From NCBI GenBank assembly GCA_031547245.1, contig JAVBSG010000008.1:8546-72545 (forward strand): a DNA stretch of 64,000 nt, given 5' to 3'. This document shows, one piece after another, positions 6,377 through 34,891 of this stretch (positions are counted from its first letter, which is position 1; every line of letters starts with the position of its first letter). The notes under the pieces are model-generated. The model searched no databases. It worked only from the letters and a program-made list of their open reading frames with translations, and had not been told where the DNA came from. Both the position numbers and the translations under genes were made by a program. Source of the DNA: Propionivibrio sp. GTDB lineage: Bacteria; Pseudomonadota; Gammaproteobacteria; Burkholderiales; Rhodocyclaceae.

Positions 6377-7777
6377 TCAAGAGTGCTGATGCGCCAGTTG
6401 GTTTCCTTCCTGGCTGCTCAGGATTGACGTATCGGTTTGTTTCAGCAATTGGCTGGTGACGACGCCGGCCGTCATTGCGCCGCTGACGTTCAATGCCGTG
6501 CGGCCCATGTCGATCAGCGGCTCGACGGAGATCAGCAGGGCCACCAGCGTGACGGGCAAGCCCATGGCCGGCAGTACGATCAGTGCGGCGAAGGTCGCGC
6601 CGCCGCCGACACCGGCAACACCCGCCGAACTGAGCGTGACGATGCCGACAAGCGTGGCGATCCACGAGGGGTCCAGCGGATTGATGCCGACCGTGGGTGC
6701 GACCATGACCGCCAGCATGGCGGGGTAGAGCCCGGCGCAGCCGTTCTGGCCTATCGTGGCGCCGAACGAAGCGGCGAACGAGGCGATGGCTTCCGGTACT
6801 CCCAGGCGCCGTGTTTGCGCCTCGACATTGAGCGGGATGGTGGCGGCGCTCGAGCGACTGGTGAAGGCGAAGGCCAGCACTGGCGAAACCTTCTTGAAAA
6901 ATCGGCCGGGATTGACGCCGACCAGCGTCAGCACCAGTGCGTGTACGCCGAACATGATACCCAGTCCGATGTAAGAGGCGGCGACGAATCCGCCCAGCTT
7001 GAGGATTTCCGCCGGGTTGGAGCCGGCGATCACCTTGGCCATCAGCGCCAGCACGCCGTAGGGAGTCAGCCTCATGACCAGACGCACGAGTTTCATGACC
7101 CAGGCTTGCAGCGTATCGATGGCGCGAAGAACGCGCGCACCCTGTTCGGCGTTGTCACGCAACAGGTTCAAGGCGGCCACGCCCAGGAAAGCGGCGAAAA
7201 TTACCACGCTGATGATCGAGGTCGGATTGGCGCCTGTCAGGTCCTGGAAGGGGTTTTTCGGGATAAAGGACAGGATTATCTGCGGCAGCGACAAGCCCGA
7301 GATCTTGCCCATGTAATCGGCCGACTGAATCTTGGCCAGGCGTTCGCTCTCCTGCGTTCCCTGAATCAATCCATCAGCCGTCAGTCCGAAAAGGTTAACC
7401 ATGGCAATGCCGACCAGCGCGGCGATGGCCGTGGTGATAAGCAGCGTGCCGATGGTCATTACACTGATCTTGCCCAGCGAGGAGGCTTTATGCAGGCGCG
7501 CCACAGCGCTGAGAATGGAAGCAAAGACCAGCGGCATGACGATCATCTGGAGCAGCCTGACGTAGCCGTTTCCCACCACATCGAGCCAGGAAATGGTTTC
7601 TTTGAGCGTCGGCGCGTTCGTGCCGTAGGTGCCTTGCAGCACCATGCCGAAGACCACGCCGATCGTGAGGCCCACCAGGACCTTTTTCGAAAGGCTCCAC
7701 GAGGTGCGTTCCGTCATCGCCAGACCGGCAAGCAATCCGATGAAAACCAGGATATTGAATGTCAATGCGTAGTTCAT
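6377..7777 (-). CDS. Dicarboxylate/amino acid:cation symporter (DAACS family, GltP/DctA/TcyP-like)
   Basis: 466 aa, about 8-10 TM helices with DAACS-type hairpin regions (SSAATIP, GVPEA). The antisense 452-aa ORF 6437..7795 is a high-GC shadow ORF. Confidence 0.8.
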
Positions 7778-30798: not shown

Positions 30799-30862
30799 TC
30801 ATAATTTGGCAGTAGTTTGAAAAAGGAATGGTTTTTTTCCCGAAAACGAAAGTTTTGCCGCA

Positions 30863-30893
30863 GATACCACCCTCCTATAGGGAGGGGGGTATC
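30863..30893. terminator. 31-nt near-perfect palindrome (GATACCACCCTCC-TATA-GGGAGGGGGGTATC), a probable bidirectional terminator between convergent pilY1 and the Zn-ribbon gene
   Basis: Inverted repeat read directly. T/A-rich flanks on both sides. Confidence 0.5.
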
Positions 30894-30930
30894 TTAATCA
30901 TGTCATCCATGATTCCCGGTATTCGCTCCT

Positions 30931-31332
30931 TCATTGACCTGAAGTTAACAGCAACCATTCCCTCCAGCGGCGCCGTGCTTCCTCCTTGCTTTCACGTTCT
31001 TTGGCGCGGCAAGGGGCGCAACGCCTGGCCGTGGTGAAACGCTCGCCCCTGGCGACTTCGTACCACCAGCGCTGGCGCTTGGCTGTCCATACGCATTCCG
31101 TTCCACAATCGATGCAGCGGAACGGCAGATCTTCGTAGTAGCCGCGGCGGACGAACAGTGGATCCCCATAGCTGTTGCTCGGACGAAGCCATGTAGGATC
31201 TACAGCAATGGCATTTTTTGGCGGCATGGGCGGAGAATCGTACAGCCAGTGCATTGCCGATTGCTCGTGGCGTGTACGGCGCGCGGTCTTGATTTCCTGT
31301 CGCCGCTGTTTTCCGCTTTTGTATGCCTTCAT
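30931..31332 (-). CDS. Small zinc-ribbon protein (CxxC-x25-CxxC) with an Arg/Lys-rich C-terminal tail; last gene of the putative sigma54/RtcR-dependent operon
   Basis: 133 aa from MKAYKSG (GGAAG 5 nt upstream; the upstream in-frame ATG at 31347 has no SD). CIDCGTEC...CAPCRAKE four-Cys pattern. Basic tail RRRWREW. Confidence 0.5.
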   Translation of the reverse strand: MKAYKSGKQRRQEIKTARRTRHEQSAMHWLYDSPPMPPKNAIAVDPTWLRPSNSYGDPLFVRRGYYEDLPFRCIDCGTECVWTAKRQRWWYEVARGERFTTARRCAPCRAKERESKEEARRRWREWLLLTSGQ

Positions 31333-31430
31333 CTTTCTTCCATCCAATAACGTGAAATTCCAGTGAAATGGAGTATCCAGGCATCTCCGCAGGGGAACGC
31401 AGGGGGCGTGAGCCCCCTGCGGGAAATGCG

Positions 31431-32570
31431 TCAGTTCGGCCGGATCTGCACCAGGCCGTTCAGCACCTGATCCAAGCCGCCGAAGACCGAGATGCGGTCG
31501 ATCCTTTCCGCCACGCGCTCCAGAGTTTCCAACTCCTTCAGGCGCAGGGCGGTCGGGTTGTCTTCCATCACCTTGGCCGTGTTGAGCAGCGAGCGCGTTG
31601 CGGCGGTTTCTTCCCGGCGGCGGATGACGTTGGCTTCCGCAGCCTTGCCGGCTTCCACCACCTGCGCGAGGATCGCCTTCATCTCGCCTGGCAGGATGAT
31701 GTCCTTGACGCCGATGCTGCCGACATCGAGGCCGAAGCCGTCGAGCTTTTGGGCGATATGCGCGCTCACCACTTCGTCGATGAGCAGCTTGTTTTCCAGC
31801 AGTTCATCGAGGTTGCGCGTTCCCACCGCTGCCCGCAGGCCGAACTGCAGCTCGCGGTAGAGGTGTTCGACCGGTTTGCTGAGTTTTTCGTAAGCGAGCA
31901 GCACGTCCGCGAAGCGCCACGTCGCCGCGAGGTTGACGCGCAGGCCGACTTTGTCGCGGGTCAGGATTTCCTGGCCGCTGACCTCCATCGCCTGCCAGCG
32001 GGTGTCGACCTGTTCGACCTGCACGTCGCGGTTGAAGCGCCAGTAGGCTTCAACGCCAGGCTGCAACAGTTCCTGCACGCGGCCATCGACGCGCAGCAGG
32101 CCGACGTGGTAGGCAGGCACCTGGGCGACCAGCAGGCCGCTCATGCCCATCAGGGCCTGTCCGCGCAGCGCCGGTTGCAACAGCCGCGAAGCCATTTCGC
32201 GGGGCAGGGCGCAGCCCTGGCGCAGATCGACCCGTTCAAGGCGATGTCTGATCAGGCCCAGCCAGAAAAAACGGCGCGATGCAGGCGGCAGTATTTCGAC
32301 CAGCACGTCGTTCTCGTAACGCAGGCCGGCTTCGTCCTCGGTCAATTCCATGCAGACGAAATACTTCCCGGCGGTTTCCGGTTCGTTCTGACGCAGGTAA
32401 TCGACGAGAGGGACGTCGAGCATGGGCGCATCCAGCTTCCAGACACTCAGCGTCAGTTCGTTCAACGGATCGAAGAAACAGTGGCGGCCGGCATCCAGAA
32501 TGCGTTCGAAATCGCCTTTGCGCAGCAGGGCGGCACGTTCGTTCTTTTTGACGATGAATCTTTTCAGCAT
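31431..32570 (-). CDS. SPFH/band-7 (slipin/stomatin-like) domain protein with an uncharacterised ~150 aa N-terminal extension
   Basis: C-terminal half has the SPFH core and an ALRLKELETL-type helix typical of band-7 proteins. ATG preceded by AAGGAGAAAAA. Confidence 0.8.
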   Translation of the reverse strand: MLKRFIVKKNERAALLRKGDFERILDAGRHCFFDPLNELTLSVWKLDAPMLDVPLVDYLRQNEPETAGKYFVCMELTEDEAGLRYENDVLVEILPPASRRFFWLGLIRHRLERVDLRQGCALPREMASRLLQPALRGQALMGMSGLLVAQVPAYHVGLLRVDGRVQELLQPGVEAYWRFNRDVQVEQVDTRWQAMEVSGQEILTRDKVGLRVNLAATWRFADVLLAYEKLSKPVEHLYRELQFGLRAAVGTRNLDELLENKLLIDEVVSAHIAQKLDGFGLDVGSIGVKDIILPGEMKAILAQVVEAGKAAEANVIRRREETAATRSLLNTAKVMEDNPTALRLKELETLERVAERIDRISVFGGLDQVLNGLVQIRPN

Positions 32571-32861
32571 TTTTTCTCCTTGATTTCCGGCTTTTGTAAG
32601 CCATTGTCGTACTTGCCGGTTATCGCCGGTCCGGCGGGCGCTTTGGGCGGCTTACGCGTGAGGGCGTCCGGCGGAGCGCCGTGGATTCCAACTCCTTCCT
32701 GGCAGCGCATCGCTGCAGGTCGGCGGTAATCCCTGGCTTCCTGCCGAACGCCTTGCCGCAAAGCGGTCCGAGGCGCCGGGCCGAACCGGCGGCGGGTGCT
32801 TGCGCATGCCGCAACCGGCGGGTGCTGCTGGTGGTACTGAACACTGTCGTTACAGGACAGT

Positions 32862-32933
32862 TGGAACGGGAGTCGAACCCGCGACCCATCGGTTATTAGC
32901 CGATCGCTCTACCCGACTGAGCTATCCAGTGGC
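32862..32933 (-). tRNA. tRNA-like element B: near-complete cloverleaf with an imperfect acceptor stem and non-canonical anticodon loop CUAAUAA (anticodon position reads AAU). Degenerate/pseudo-tRNA or tRNA mimic
   Basis: Minus-strand read 5'-GCCACUGGA UA GCUC AGUCGGGUA GAGC G AUCGG CUAAUAA CCGAU GGGUC GCGGG UUCGACU CCCGU UCCA-3'. D-arm, anticodon arm and T-arm (GGGTTCGACTCCC) are canonical. Only 4 of 7 acceptor base pairs form and there is no genuine encoded CCA. Confidence 0.45.
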
Positions 32934-32986
32934 TGCACGCAGGGAATCGAACCCAGACATTCAAGATGCCCAACCAAGGCATGCAG
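32930..32986 (-). ncRNA. tRNA-like element A: minihelix-like RNA (7-bp acceptor-like stem CTGCATG/CGTGCAG + T-arm CTGGG-TTCGATT-CCCTG + encoded CCA) lacking D and anticodon arms
   Basis: Minus-strand read CUGCAUG-CCUUGGUUGGGCAUCUUGAAUGU-CUGGG UUCGAUU CCCUG-CGUGCAG-CCA. Its 3' CCA abuts/overlaps the 5' end of element B. Could be one composite Y-RNA-like transcript with B. Confidence 0.35.
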
Positions 32987-33126
32987 ATATCGCTTTCCCG
33001 CGACGGCGGCATACAGCGGAACGACAAACGCCATCTTTCCAGGATGGCATCAGGCTCCGATGCACCGGCGGGGTGGGAACCCCTTGCCCGTCGGCCATTG
33101 CCGCAAGTTGGCGACGATCTGTTCAT

Positions 33127-33143
33127 TGCGAAAGGCGTGCCAG
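33127..33143 (-). promoter_or_regulatory. Sigma54 (RpoN) -24/-12 promoter (CTGGCACGCCTTTCGCA) reading leftwards into the tRNA-like elements, SPFH and Zn-ribbon genes
   Basis: Minus-strand TGGCAC-N5-TCGCA. GG and GC separated by exactly 10 nt (consensus TGGCACG-N4-TTGCW, one mismatch in the -12 box). Sits about 140 nt upstream of the divergent rtcR start. Confidence 0.5.
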
Positions 33144-33283: not shown

Positions 33284-34891
33284 ATGAAGAAAATCGTGGT
33301 CATCGGTTTCCTTGGTACGCAGTTGGACTATGCGGGAAAAGGCAGCACCCGCTGGGAAAAATGGCGTCCGTCGATCGCGCTCTGCCAGCAGGAGGATCTG
33401 GTCGTGCATCGCCTGGAACTGATTCACGATCCGCGCAGCCGCGGCCTGGCCGAGCGCGTCGTCCTGGACGTCGCCAGCGTGTCGCCGGAGACCGAGGTGC
33501 GCCGCAATGAGATGGAGCTGCGCAACCCCTGGGATTTCGAGGAGGTTTACACCACGCTGCACGATTTTGCGCGCAACTACCCCTTCGACCCCGAGAACGA
33601 GGAATACCTCATCCACATCACCACGGGAACGCACGTCGCGCAGATCTGCTGGTTCCTGCTGGCCGAAGCGCGCTATCTTCCGGCACGGCTGCTGCAAACC
33701 TCGCCGCCGCGCAAGAAGGAGATTGCCAACAGCATCGGGTCCTACGAAATCATCGACCTCGACCTCTCGCGCTATAACCAGATCGCGCAGCGCTTTGCCC
33801 GCGAGCATGACGACAGCGTGTCCTTCCTCAAGTCCGGCATTGCCACGCGCAACCCTGCCTTCAACCGCATGATAGAACGCATCGAACACGTGGCCGGCCG
33901 TTCGCGCGCGCCGATGCTGCTGGTGGGGCCTACCGGCGCAGGCAAGTCCTTCCTGGCGCGCCGGGTGTATGAGCTGAAACGCCAGCGGCAGCGGCTGGCC
34001 GGGCGCTTCATCGAGGTCAACTGCGCCACGCTGCGCGGCGATTCGGCGATGTCCAATCTGTTCGGCCATGTCAAAGGGGCGTTTACCGGTGCGCAGAGCG
34101 AAAGGCCCGGGCTGCTGCGTTCTGCCGACCTGGGGCTGCTTTTCCTCGACGAAATAGGCGAGCTTGGGCTTGACGAACAGGCCATGTTGCTCAAGGCCAT
34201 AGAGGAAAAGCGCTTCTTCCCCTTCGGCGGCGACCGCGAGGCGGAAAGCGATTTCCAGCTCATCGCCGGCACGCACCGCGACCTGCGGCAGTGGGTGAGC
34301 GAAGGGCGTTTCCGCGAGGATCTTTACGCCCGCATCAATCTGTGGACTTTCATGCTGCCGGGCTTGTCCGAGCGGCCCGAGGATATCGAACCCAACCTCG
34401 ATTTCGAGTTGGAGCGCTTCGCCCGCGAAGACGGCCAGGTGGTTCGCTTCAACGTCGAGGCCAGGCGCCGCTACCTGTCCTTTGCCGCCTCGCCGCAGGC
34501 GCGCTGGCAGGGTAATTTCCGCGAACTCGGAGCCTCGTTGACGCGCCTGGCCACGCTAGCCGAAGCGGGGCGGATTACCGAAGAACTGGTTTCGGAAGAA
34601 ATCGTCCGCCTGCGTGCAAGCTGGAGCATAGATGGTGAAGAAGATGCCGTGGCATCGCTCGCCAGGCAGTTTCCCGGAGTTTTTTCCGATTCGCTCGATC
34701 TCTTCGACCGGTGCCAGTTGAACGCCGTGATCGATGTCTGCCGGAATTCGTCCAGCCTCTCCGAAGCCGGTAGAAAGCTGTTTGCCGTATCGCGGCAGGA
34801 GAAAAAACAACCCAACGATGCTGACAGGTTGCGCAAGTACCTGGGCCGCTTCGGGCTGACGTACGAAATCCTGGCTGACGAACAATCCTAG
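33284..34891 (+). CDS. rtcR: RtcR-type sigma54-dependent transcriptional regulator (N-terminal CARF-like domain, central AAA+ with GAFTGA, C-terminal HTH)
   Basis: N-terminus MKKIVVIGFLGTQLDYAGKGSTRWEKWRPS...HITTGTHVAQICWFLLAEARYLPARLLQTSPPRKKE is characteristic of RtcR. Walker A GPTGAGKSF. GAFTGA loop (VKGAFTGAQ). C-terminus ...NDADRLRKYLGRFGLTYE. Confidence 0.88.
   Translation: MKKIVVIGFLGTQLDYAGKGSTRWEKWRPSIALCQQEDLVVHRLELIHDPRSRGLAERVVLDVASVSPETEVRRNEMELRNPWDFEEVYTTLHDFARNYPFDPENEEYLIHITTGTHVAQICWFLLAEARYLPARLLQTSPPRKKEIANSIGSYEIIDLDLSRYNQIAQRFAREHDDSVSFLKSGIATRNPAFNRMIERIEHVAGRSRAPMLLVGPTGAGKSFLARRVYELKRQRQRLAGRFIEVNCATLRGDSAMSNLFGHVKGAFTGAQSERPGLLRSADLGLLFLDEIGELGLDEQAMLLKAIEEKRFFPFGGDREAESDFQLIAGTHRDLRQWVSEGRFREDLYARINLWTFMLPGLSERPEDIEPNLDFELERFAREDGQVVRFNVEARRRYLSFAASPQARWQGNFRELGASLTRLATLAEAGRITEELVSEEIVRLRASWSIDGEEDAVASLARQFPGVFSDSLDLFDRCQLNAVIDVCRNSSSLSEAGRKLFAVSRQEKKQPNDADRLRKYLGRFGLTYEILADEQS

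Follow-up and report, generated by a model that had tools for sequence, protein, structure and literature searches.

Probable tandem tRNA mimics in the structured leader of a Band-7/SPFH gene from Propionivibrio sp.

Mimics of tRNA tied to RNA-repair operons are widespread, and include YrlA, which accompanies Ro60, and b7a-tRNA, which accompanies Band-7 proteins. YrlA (Rfam RF02553; Chen et al. 2014) occurs in an RNA-repair context controlled by RtcR and sigma-54, and in Mycobacterium smegmatis a YrlA with an acceptor stem of 7 base pairs (bp) is cleaved by RNase P and acquires CCA in vivo (PMC4201824). The b7a-tRNA class is credited to Burroughs and Aravind (2016) by a citing preprint, which states in its passages on the class that RtcB in some bacteria adjoins a Band-7 protein and a predicted tRNA-like RNA, that this RNA is proposed to be functionally redundant with YrlA, that the two are reported to swap partners occasionally, and that the class was a computational prediction as of 2018 (10.1101/312249). 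Literature searches for b7a-tRNA turned up this one citing preprint only, and the class has no Rfam model. In operons of this kind the encoded enzymes repair damaged tRNAs, RlaP being the one that restores them (PMC12776372), and RtcR responds to damaged tRNAs, with damaged tRNA fragments activating it in Salmonella (PMC7790460). The present study concerns two tandem tRNA-like elements, A and B, in a stretch of 64,000 nucleotides (nt) from Propionivibrio sp. (contig JAVBSG010000008.1, positions 8,546 to 72,545), referred to here as the window. All coordinates are positions in this 64-kb window, and A, B, the leader around them and the downstream Band-7 gene are all read on the minus strand.

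The two elements are probably tandem non-decoding tRNA mimics, with A as the reduced partner, lying in a structured leader of approximately 550 nt that is transcribed under RtcR and sigma-54 control ahead of a soluble Band-7/SPFH gene. Judged from comparative sequence data, neither A nor B is a decoding tRNA or a decayed relic, and the initial annotation, which had called them something other than ordinary tRNAs, is borne out by the truncated acceptor and 44 loop variants of B and by covariation. Under the class definition relayed by the citing preprint, B is by homology a member of the b7a-tRNA class and the Band-7 counterpart of the Ro/YrlA pair; the locus adds a member, in a reduced operon, to a class that had already been predicted. 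B is strongly tRNA-like (Rfam, ARAGORN and a covarying cloverleaf), is encoded adjacent to a Band-7 gene as in related loci, and has homologues at the equivalent position of 70 related loci (58-locus alignment). The window differs from the class as that source describes it in having no adjacent RtcB, RlaP or RtcA, and linkage to RtcB was found nowhere in the 64 kb. The two elements are as follows.

32930-32986, minus strand: element A, a reduced tRNA-like module (family covariance model R1, covariation)
32862-32929, minus strand: element B, a b7a-tRNA-type cloverleaf (Rfam tRNA, ARAGORN, covariation)

The Rfam tRNA model matches B with 51.2 bits (E = 4.6e-8 over the 64-kb window; gathering score 29), the match being limited to model positions 4-67 at 32862-32928, and the sole tRNA call that ARAGORN makes in the window is a tRNA-Ile(aat) at 32855-32932. 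B contains a canonical U8-A9, a D arm GCUC-AGUCGGGUA-GAGC with GG, an anticodon arm AUCGG-CUAAUAA-CCGAU with AAU as its 'anticodon', a variable loop GGGUC and a T arm GCGGG-UUCGACU-CCCGU. The initial annotation had described all three arms as perfect, which is true of the D and anticodon stems; the T stem includes one G-U pair. Its other statements on this element, namely that only four of seven acceptor pairs form (the inner ones, UGGA/UCCA), that there is no 3' CCA and that the loop CUAAUAA presents AAU, all agree with the minus strand. The 7-bp acceptor, discriminator and CCA of a canonical decoding tRNA-Ile are not found in B. Folding of A and B together as a single sequence gave a result no better than shuffles (z = -0.28), and the significance of the elements therefore rests on model scores and comparative data.

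GTDB species genomes were scanned, giving at least 552 confirmed relatives of the Band-7 protein, and 80 loci were fetched that span Rhodocyclales, Burkholderia, Pseudomonas (P. aeruginosa not included), Roseateles and others. In about 70 of these 80 beta- and gammaproteobacterial loci the tandem A/B pair precedes the Band-7 orthologue by 230-450 nt, and two T-loop motifs with a spacing of 63-83 nt are present in 71 loci when the window is counted. In most loci ARAGORN places a tRNA-like element 230-430 nt ahead of Band-7, and the identity it assigns varies among Met, Ile, Leu, Thr, Val, Asn, Lys, Arg, Glu, Ser and undetermined; in Pseudomonas it reports two abutting tRNA-like elements.

Alignment of orthologous loci in search of compensatory changes, a check suggested at the outset, revealed them in both elements. 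For B, a sequence-only MAFFT alignment of 58 loci was used, while anticodon and acceptor counts were anchored on the D and T arms of 71 loci. The 58-locus alignment has 22 invariant columns, which cluster in the D arm and T loops, and 92.6% of the cells of the B cloverleaf are paired, compared to 35-45% for slid partners. Compensatory changes occur in all five anticodon-stem pairs, the D stem is invariant, and one acceptor pair flips from G-C to C-G 13 times. The paired fraction along the acceptor rises from 0.20, 0.45 and 0.70 at positions 1 to 3 to 0.94, 0.96, 0.96 and 0.97 at positions 4 to 7. The anticodon loop measures 7 nt in 34 loci, 6 in 19, 5 in seven and 4 in eight, falling within 4-8 nt in all but two of the 71 loci (the outliers have 1 and 15 nt). 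These 71 loci carry 44 distinct loops, GAAA, GCAA and UUCG tetraloops included, and the 7-nt loops alone present 18 different 'anticodons'. Close relatives differ in the amino-acid identity of the 'anticodon' while the body of B is nearly identical. Because the anticodon loop is hypervariable and the body and elbow are conserved, we infer that selection maintains the tRNA body and elbow of B and does not act on decoding or aminoacylation.

The one copy with expression data belongs to P. aeruginosa, where the same type of locus places PA4581.1, annotated as 'tRNA-Arg4' and likewise without CCA, between rtcR (PA4581) and PA4582 (PMC13637947), the latter encoding the SPFH protein PaFlo8 (PMC13086221). 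By quantitative reverse-transcription PCR, PA4581.1 reaches about half the level of canonical tRNAs (PMC13637947), and it ranks with the most strongly up-regulated genes of a late cystic-fibrosis isolate (PMC8743555). Its 'anticodon' is ACG, unlike the AAU of the window. Since the class has only been predicted and lacks an Rfam model, its members are annotated as ordinary tRNA genes with arbitrary identities, as in the tRNA-Ile(AAU) of the window and the tRNA-Arg4 of P. aeruginosa.

Element A is a smaller module, and its parts in the window are, in 5' to 3' order on the minus strand:

32980-32986: acceptor 5' strand
32957-32979: middle segment
32940-32956: T arm
32933-32939: acceptor 3' strand
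32930-32932: encoded CCA

The acceptor stem CUGCAUG/CGUGCAG comprises 7 bp with one U-G pair, the middle segment of 23 nt includes a small GG-containing hairpin, and the T arm is CUGGG-UUCGAUU-CCCUG. A had originally been described as a 57-nt minihelix, and its acceptor stem, T arm and CCA are indeed found at 32930-32986, together with a U-U mismatch in the T stem that the description had passed over. The observations that its CCA directly abuts B and that a hairpin CUGUC-CUGUAAC-GACAG follows B were both accurate. A covariance model built from ten other loci finds A in the window at full length (32929-32986, 18.8 bits, E = 2e-4; 801 nt searched, filters off). Element A shares its reduced architecture and encoded CCA with the tRNA-like domain of tmRNA and with mascRNA, and gives weak partial matches to both (mascRNA 16.6 bits, tmRNA 10.9 bits) that lie far below the gathering scores; unlike these RNAs, it has no mRNA-like domain, SmpB context or eukaryotic context.

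Across the family, A outside Pseudomonas always consists of a 7-nt 5' strand, a middle segment of 12-26 nt, a T arm and a 7-nt 3' strand. Plain MAFFT failed to align the 5' acceptor strands with one another, owing to the varying length of the middle segment. The covariance model R1 was built from a gapless seed of ten sequences, and the resulting alignment leans towards the modelled structure, a bias offset by slid-partner and shuffle controls and a best-of-18 null. At E <= 0.01 the model gives 49 matches, of which 48 are A at its expected place, in 48 loci. Among 47 distinct homologues all seven acceptor pairs show double changes, and 93.5% of acceptor cells are paired, compared to 73% in shuffles and 37-57% for slid partners; the seventh is often left unpaired. 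Covariation scores 0.54, where shuffles give 0.16 and none of 500 attains the observed value. Independently of the model, 55 of 58 loci form at least six of the seven pairs, a level that the shuffled null reaches in 27%. A CCA follows the stem in 28 of the 58 loci (20 as NCCA, eight directly), where 1.7 would be expected, and many other copies end in CCU or UCA, which look like decayed CCA. A GG near the start of the middle segment is present in 56 of 58 loci against 70% expected, a weak statistic that would fit the remnant of a D loop docked on the T loop. The Pseudomonas A forms an entire cloverleaf, lacks CCA and has its anticodon stem capped by a tetraloop (Rfam 52.4 bits in locus L038), so that the upstream element of the fetched Pseudomonas loci is full where that of the window is reduced. 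An alternative pairing of A may also be possible, between the last 3 nt of the 5' acceptor strand and the 3' part of the middle segment; it was seen by eye in several Rhodocyclales (AUGCC/GGCAU in the window, GCGAGCC/GGCUCGC in locus L016) and is absent from Roseateles-type copies.

The pair is placed between a sigma-54 promoter beside rtcR and the soluble Band-7/SPFH gene, embedded in a covarying leader of about 550 nt. The features of the window outside the elements are:

33284-34891, plus strand: RtcR, with N-terminal CARF-type RtcR domain, sigma-54 activator (Pfam RtcR and Sigma54_activat; NCBIfam NF038308)
33127-33142, minus strand: sigma-54 promoter TGGCACGCCTTTCGCA, divergent from rtcR (consensus match)
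33004-33106, minus strand: 5' domain of the leader, conserved and covarying (RNAalifold, 45-sequence MAFFT alignment)
32844-32860, minus strand: hairpin following B (paired cells and double changes)
32615-32819, minus strand: GC-rich rod-like 3' domain of the leader (RNAalifold, 23 Rhodocyclales leaders)
31431-32570, minus strand: Band-7/SPFH ('slipin family') protein of 379 amino acids (Pfam Band_7, E = 1.2e-27)

The initial annotation had placed the elements downstream of a sigma-54 promoter and next to rtcR, and both assignments stand. The consensus TGGCAC-N5-TYGCW has a single match in the window, where 0.26 would be expected; it sits between the elements and the divergent RtcR gene, and the motif is found at the equal relative position in 46 related loci. 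From the position of the promoter we infer a transcription start near 33117. The RtcR protein scores 845.9 bits against the NCBIfam equivalog NF038308, whose cut-off is 650.

No Rfam family except tRNA reaches its gathering score in the window. In the 5' domain, which measures 88 nt in most loci and includes a long covarying hairpin and an invariant AUGCCGC, 18 of 24 RNAalifold pairs show compensatory changes. Its first hairpin in the window is GACGGGC-A-[GGGG-UUCCCA-CCCC]-GCCGGUG (most loci have CACGGGC at the start) and, in our reading, looks like a 12-bp acceptor/T minihelix that carries a conserved purine-G mismatch. The hairpin after B has a 5-bp stem and a 7-nt loop, with about 80% of cells paired and double changes in all five pairs; its loop is anticodon-loop-like (Y-U-NNN-A-N) in 31 of 58 loci and a GCAA tetraloop in Burkholderia. 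The rod is approximately 200 nt long, contains repeated CCCGCCGG motifs and ends about 45 nt ahead of the Band-7 start codon. From the hairpin after B to that start codon there are 49 pairs, five of them in the hairpin; pairing holds in 94.8% of cells, and double changes occur in 28 pairs. The rod pairs come from RNAalifold on the 23 Rhodocyclales leaders, evaluated with our own script on close relatives only.

The Band-7 gene, whose start codon lies 292 nt downstream of the last paired base of B (32862), is the first gene downstream of the elements, a position held by neither rsr, rtcB nor rtcA, and the sole operon gene in the window. Its product is stomatin-like in sequence and in fold, and has a beta-rich N-terminal domain and no hydrophobic anchor segment. 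It shares 74-94% identity with the top 120 protein-database relatives, Rhodocyclales included, and 62-80% with the copies from the 80 fetched loci; the closest relatives are Rhodocyclales (Azonexus, Dechloromonas). AlphaFold models residues 1-190 with confidence (predicted local distance difference test scores of about 80-88) as a beta-rich structure, whereas the SPFH part is of low confidence with a shallow alignment. These 190 residues stand where classical SPFH proteins have their membrane anchor, and gave no match in Pfam. A Foldseek search against the PDB returned SPFH cages only (stomatin, HflK/C, prohibitin, flotillin), with no informative neighbour for the N-terminal domain. The N-terminal 190 residues are a candidate RNA-binding module.

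In the canonical operon, exemplified by Dechloromonas, the leader is followed by Band_7, RtcB, RlaP and RtcA. RtcB lies immediately 3' of Band-7 in 60 of the 80 loci, RtcR is divergent in 60 of 80, and RlaP and RtcA are also found downstream of Band-7 in many relatives. In the window, tblastn with the proteins of a relative found no RtcB, RlaP or RtcA in the 64 kb, and no rtcB remnant is detectable between the Band-7 stop and pilY1. The operon appears truncated after Band-7, because rtcB-rlaP-rtcA occupy the corresponding interval in relatives. The window is not alone in this, as RtcB is missing from at least nine other loci for which at least 3.4 kb of downstream sequence is available. The retention of the RNA-Band-7 pair without an adjacent ligase suggests that the pair is a functional unit of its own.

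The conserved parts of the mimics offer some indication of how they might work. Selection appears to act on the tRNA 'top half' and elbow and not on decoding, and since conservation falls on the acceptor/T stack and the D/T elbow, the RNA would most likely be recognised as a tRNA-shaped object and serve as partner or scaffold of a Band-7 oligomer and tRNA-repair enzymes. Such a role would parallel that of YrlA with Ro60/Rsr. The genomic partners that recur are the soluble SPFH protein, which is constant, and in most genomes the tRNA-repair enzymes; the simplest model, in line with Burroughs and Aravind and with the YrlA analogy, is that the RNA would be partner or scaffold of a Band-7 particle engaged in the repair or surveillance of tRNAs. 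By analogy, Band-7, the repair enzymes or RNase P are candidate readers of the mimic. The 7-bp stem and NCCA of A make it a plausible RNase P substrate, as seen for the M. smegmatis YrlA, and processing of the leader into pieces is for this reason to be expected: the modules would be released by a probable RNase P cut 5' of A and perhaps a second one at the junction between the CCA of A and B. The comparative picture yields testable predictions, including RNase P processing and Band-7 binding. If this function is confirmed, the elements would define the RNA part of a soluble SPFH particle that takes part in bacterial responses to tRNA damage.

A more ambitious reading, which we entertain only tentatively, is that A and B are the core of one structured RNA of about 550 nt, the dedicated partner of a soluble SPFH cage in a Ro/Y-RNA-like or vault-like particle that handles damaged tRNAs. 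Such an RNA would be composed of the acceptor/T-minihelix-like 5' domain, A with its CCA, B, the anticodon-arm-like hairpin and the 200-nt rod. A particle function independent of the ligase is proposed here because the trio of RNA, Band-7 and RtcR persists without adjacent RtcB in the window and in at least nine other genomes. If so, the A/B junction would also illustrate how the permuted YrlA domain could arise from tandem tRNAs.

There are several other potential explanations for the tandem elements, two of which partly overlap with the preferred model of mimics partnering Band-7. It is rather unlikely that A and B serve mainly as cis-acting processing signals ('tRNA punctuation'), at which RNase P, RNase Z or exonucleases would cut, separating the 5' domain from the mRNA and setting the stability of the Band-7/rtcB message, with no trans role for the excised pieces. 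The 6-7-bp acceptor, T arm and frequent NCCA of A are bacterial RNase P determinants, its CCA abuts the first paired base of B, the modules always lie in a leader upstream of coding genes, and the cleavage and CCA gain of the 7-bp M. smegmatis YrlA offer a precedent (PMC4201824). However, processing alone leaves unexplained the strictly conserved D arm and elbow nucleotides of B, as well as the conservation of two modules with extensive flanking structure, and B, with four to five acceptor pairs and no CCA, is a poor RNase P substrate. Less probable again is a role of the modules as decoy or bait for ribotoxins that target tRNA, in which they would either protect real tRNAs by competition or be cleaved into 2',3'-cyclic-phosphate fragments that would feed back on the CARF domain of RtcR. 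This would fit the activation of RtcR by damaged tRNA fragments in Salmonella and the proposal that YrlA's tRNA-like domain is a competitive inhibitor of an anticodon nuclease (both PMC7790460), and it would fit the repair of damaged tRNAs by the operon enzymes (PMC12776372). The loop of B, however, is not conserved and is often a 4-nt tetraloop, and is therefore no general bait for anticodon nucleases; YrlA fragments went undetected upon tRNA cleavage in Salmonella (PMC7790460); and because the promoter itself requires activated RtcR, a bait made after induction cannot be the primary sensor.

The remaining explanations had been raised by the initial annotation, which likened the elements to YrlA-type Y RNAs and, failing that, considered them decayed tRNA or attachment-site (att) remnants next to a pilin cluster. 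The likeness to YrlA is real as regards tRNA mimicry, RtcR/sigma-54 control and functional analogy: in both, the T arm, D arm and acceptor are conserved and the anticodon end is free of decoding constraint, both have a ring- or cage-forming protein as proposed partner, and the YrlA order of T arm, acceptor 3' strand, acceptor 5' strand and D arm recurs across the A/B junction. Partner swaps between b7a-tRNA and YrlA are, as noted, reported in the preprint (10.1101/312249). The likeness does not extend to family membership or to an rsr/rtcBA context, and the chance that the elements are YrlA RNAs bound by Ro60/Rsr is very slim. The Rfam YrlA model reaches 18.5 bits in the window (E = 0.7, model positions 30-81) and 26 bits in locus L003, far under the gathering score of 69, and the weak match arises because the T arm of A and the D arm of B happen to be adjacent. 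The Rfam alignment marks as non-canonical the junction hairpin between the 3' strand of A and the 5' strand of B, on which a YrlA fold would depend. YrlA is one circularly permuted domain, whereas A and B are two modules that each close their own covarying acceptor, and the window has no adjacent Ro60/Rsr gene, Ro-binding stem or GNCGAAN0-1G motif; no rsr was found by Pfam among the genes neighbouring the elements, the remaining window not having been scanned for the TROVE domain. YrlA membership was thus rejected on scores, topology and the lack of an adjoining Rsr. That the elements are decayed tRNA genes or an att remnant, or that B is a genuine tRNA-Ile(AAU), is hardly credible. ARAGORN does call tRNA-Ile(aat), pilY1 and pilW are nearby, and public annotations name such copies tRNA genes, PA4581.1 (tRNA-Arg4) being an example (PMC13637947). 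Against this, the pair holds the same position beside Band-7 in about 70 loci with compensatory changes, the 'anticodon' identity shifts between close relatives, and B has loops of 4-8 nt, a truncated acceptor and no CCA. The supposed link to a pilin cluster found no backing either: pil genes were seen in the window only, the neighbours in other loci having been searched only for RtcR, RtcB, RlaP and RtcA, and it is rtcB that lies 3' of Band-7 in 60 of 80 loci. Pfam identified no integrase among the neighbouring genes. A genuine tRNA-Ile, a decayed tRNA and an att relic were all rejected on these comparative data.

It is also important to note the observations that weigh against tandem mimics partnering Band-7, the reading preferred here. 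The copy of A in the window is the weakest of the family (18.8 bits, compared to 24-63 in the others) and combines an 8-nt insertion with its T-stem U-U mismatch. With RtcB, RlaP and RtcA missing from the window, the locus may be in partial decay. Both modules are gone from three Pseudomonas loci (L057, L065 and L070) in which Band-7 and RtcB remain, and the modules are therefore dispensable in some lineages. The fold search yielded no RNA-binding assignment for the N-terminal domain of the Band-7 protein, the definition of b7a-tRNA used here is second-hand, coming from the citing preprint (10.1101/312249), and every functional step proposed draws on comparison and on the analogy with YrlA.

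The wider surroundings of the elements in the window and in related loci showed a number of further features. Pfam identified the neighbouring genes of the window as encoding RtcR, Band-7, PilY1, PilW, a rhomboid protein, a UPF0149 protein and QueF, with a convergent pilY1 coming after the Band-7 gene. The roughly 630 nt between the Band-7 stop and the end of pilY1 (30799-31430, minus strand) hold no convincing gene; an open reading frame of 130 amino acids at 30992-31384 is Arg-rich and without Pfam match, and this interval is the place of rtcB-rlaP-rtcA in relatives. In the three Pseudomonas loci that lack both modules, unrelated sequence stands in their place and the 5' domain is retained, while two others (L056 and L068) have one chimeric element with an A-like 5' part and a B-like 3' part, which looks like a deletion between tandem copies.

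A third tRNA-like element lies between the Band-7 stop and the rtcB start in eight loci (L003, at about 7285-7403; L005; L006; L007, with an R1 match at 7563-7609; L008; L009; L015; L037) and has no counterpart in the window. Its 3' end reads ...GCGGGUUCGAGUCCCGC-CGUGUCC-A-CCA, the Rfam tmRNA model matches its two ends only (16.8 bits), and it looks like a tmRNA-type acceptor and T-arm domain with ACCA. In eight other loci, of Roseateles/Rubrivivax type and related, full-length ordinary tRNA genes precede the leader on the same strand, 1-2.8 kb ahead of Band-7. Three of these loci (L044, L050, L073) have arrays with as many as nine such genes, and the others (L040, L048, L059, L061, L071) have one or two; the genes include Arg, Ala, Glu, Trp, Pro, Asp, His, Leu and Gln. 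Neither a divergent RtcR nor a sigma-54 promoter was found at these eight loci, where the leader and Band-7, with RtcB where present, may be co-transcribed with the tRNA operon. In Dechloromonas sp. ARDL1 (L002/L081), an IS21-family element (IstB and a Mu-type transposase) takes the place of rtcR, from about 850 nt and further upstream of Band-7, and the divergent activator has been lost from the operon.

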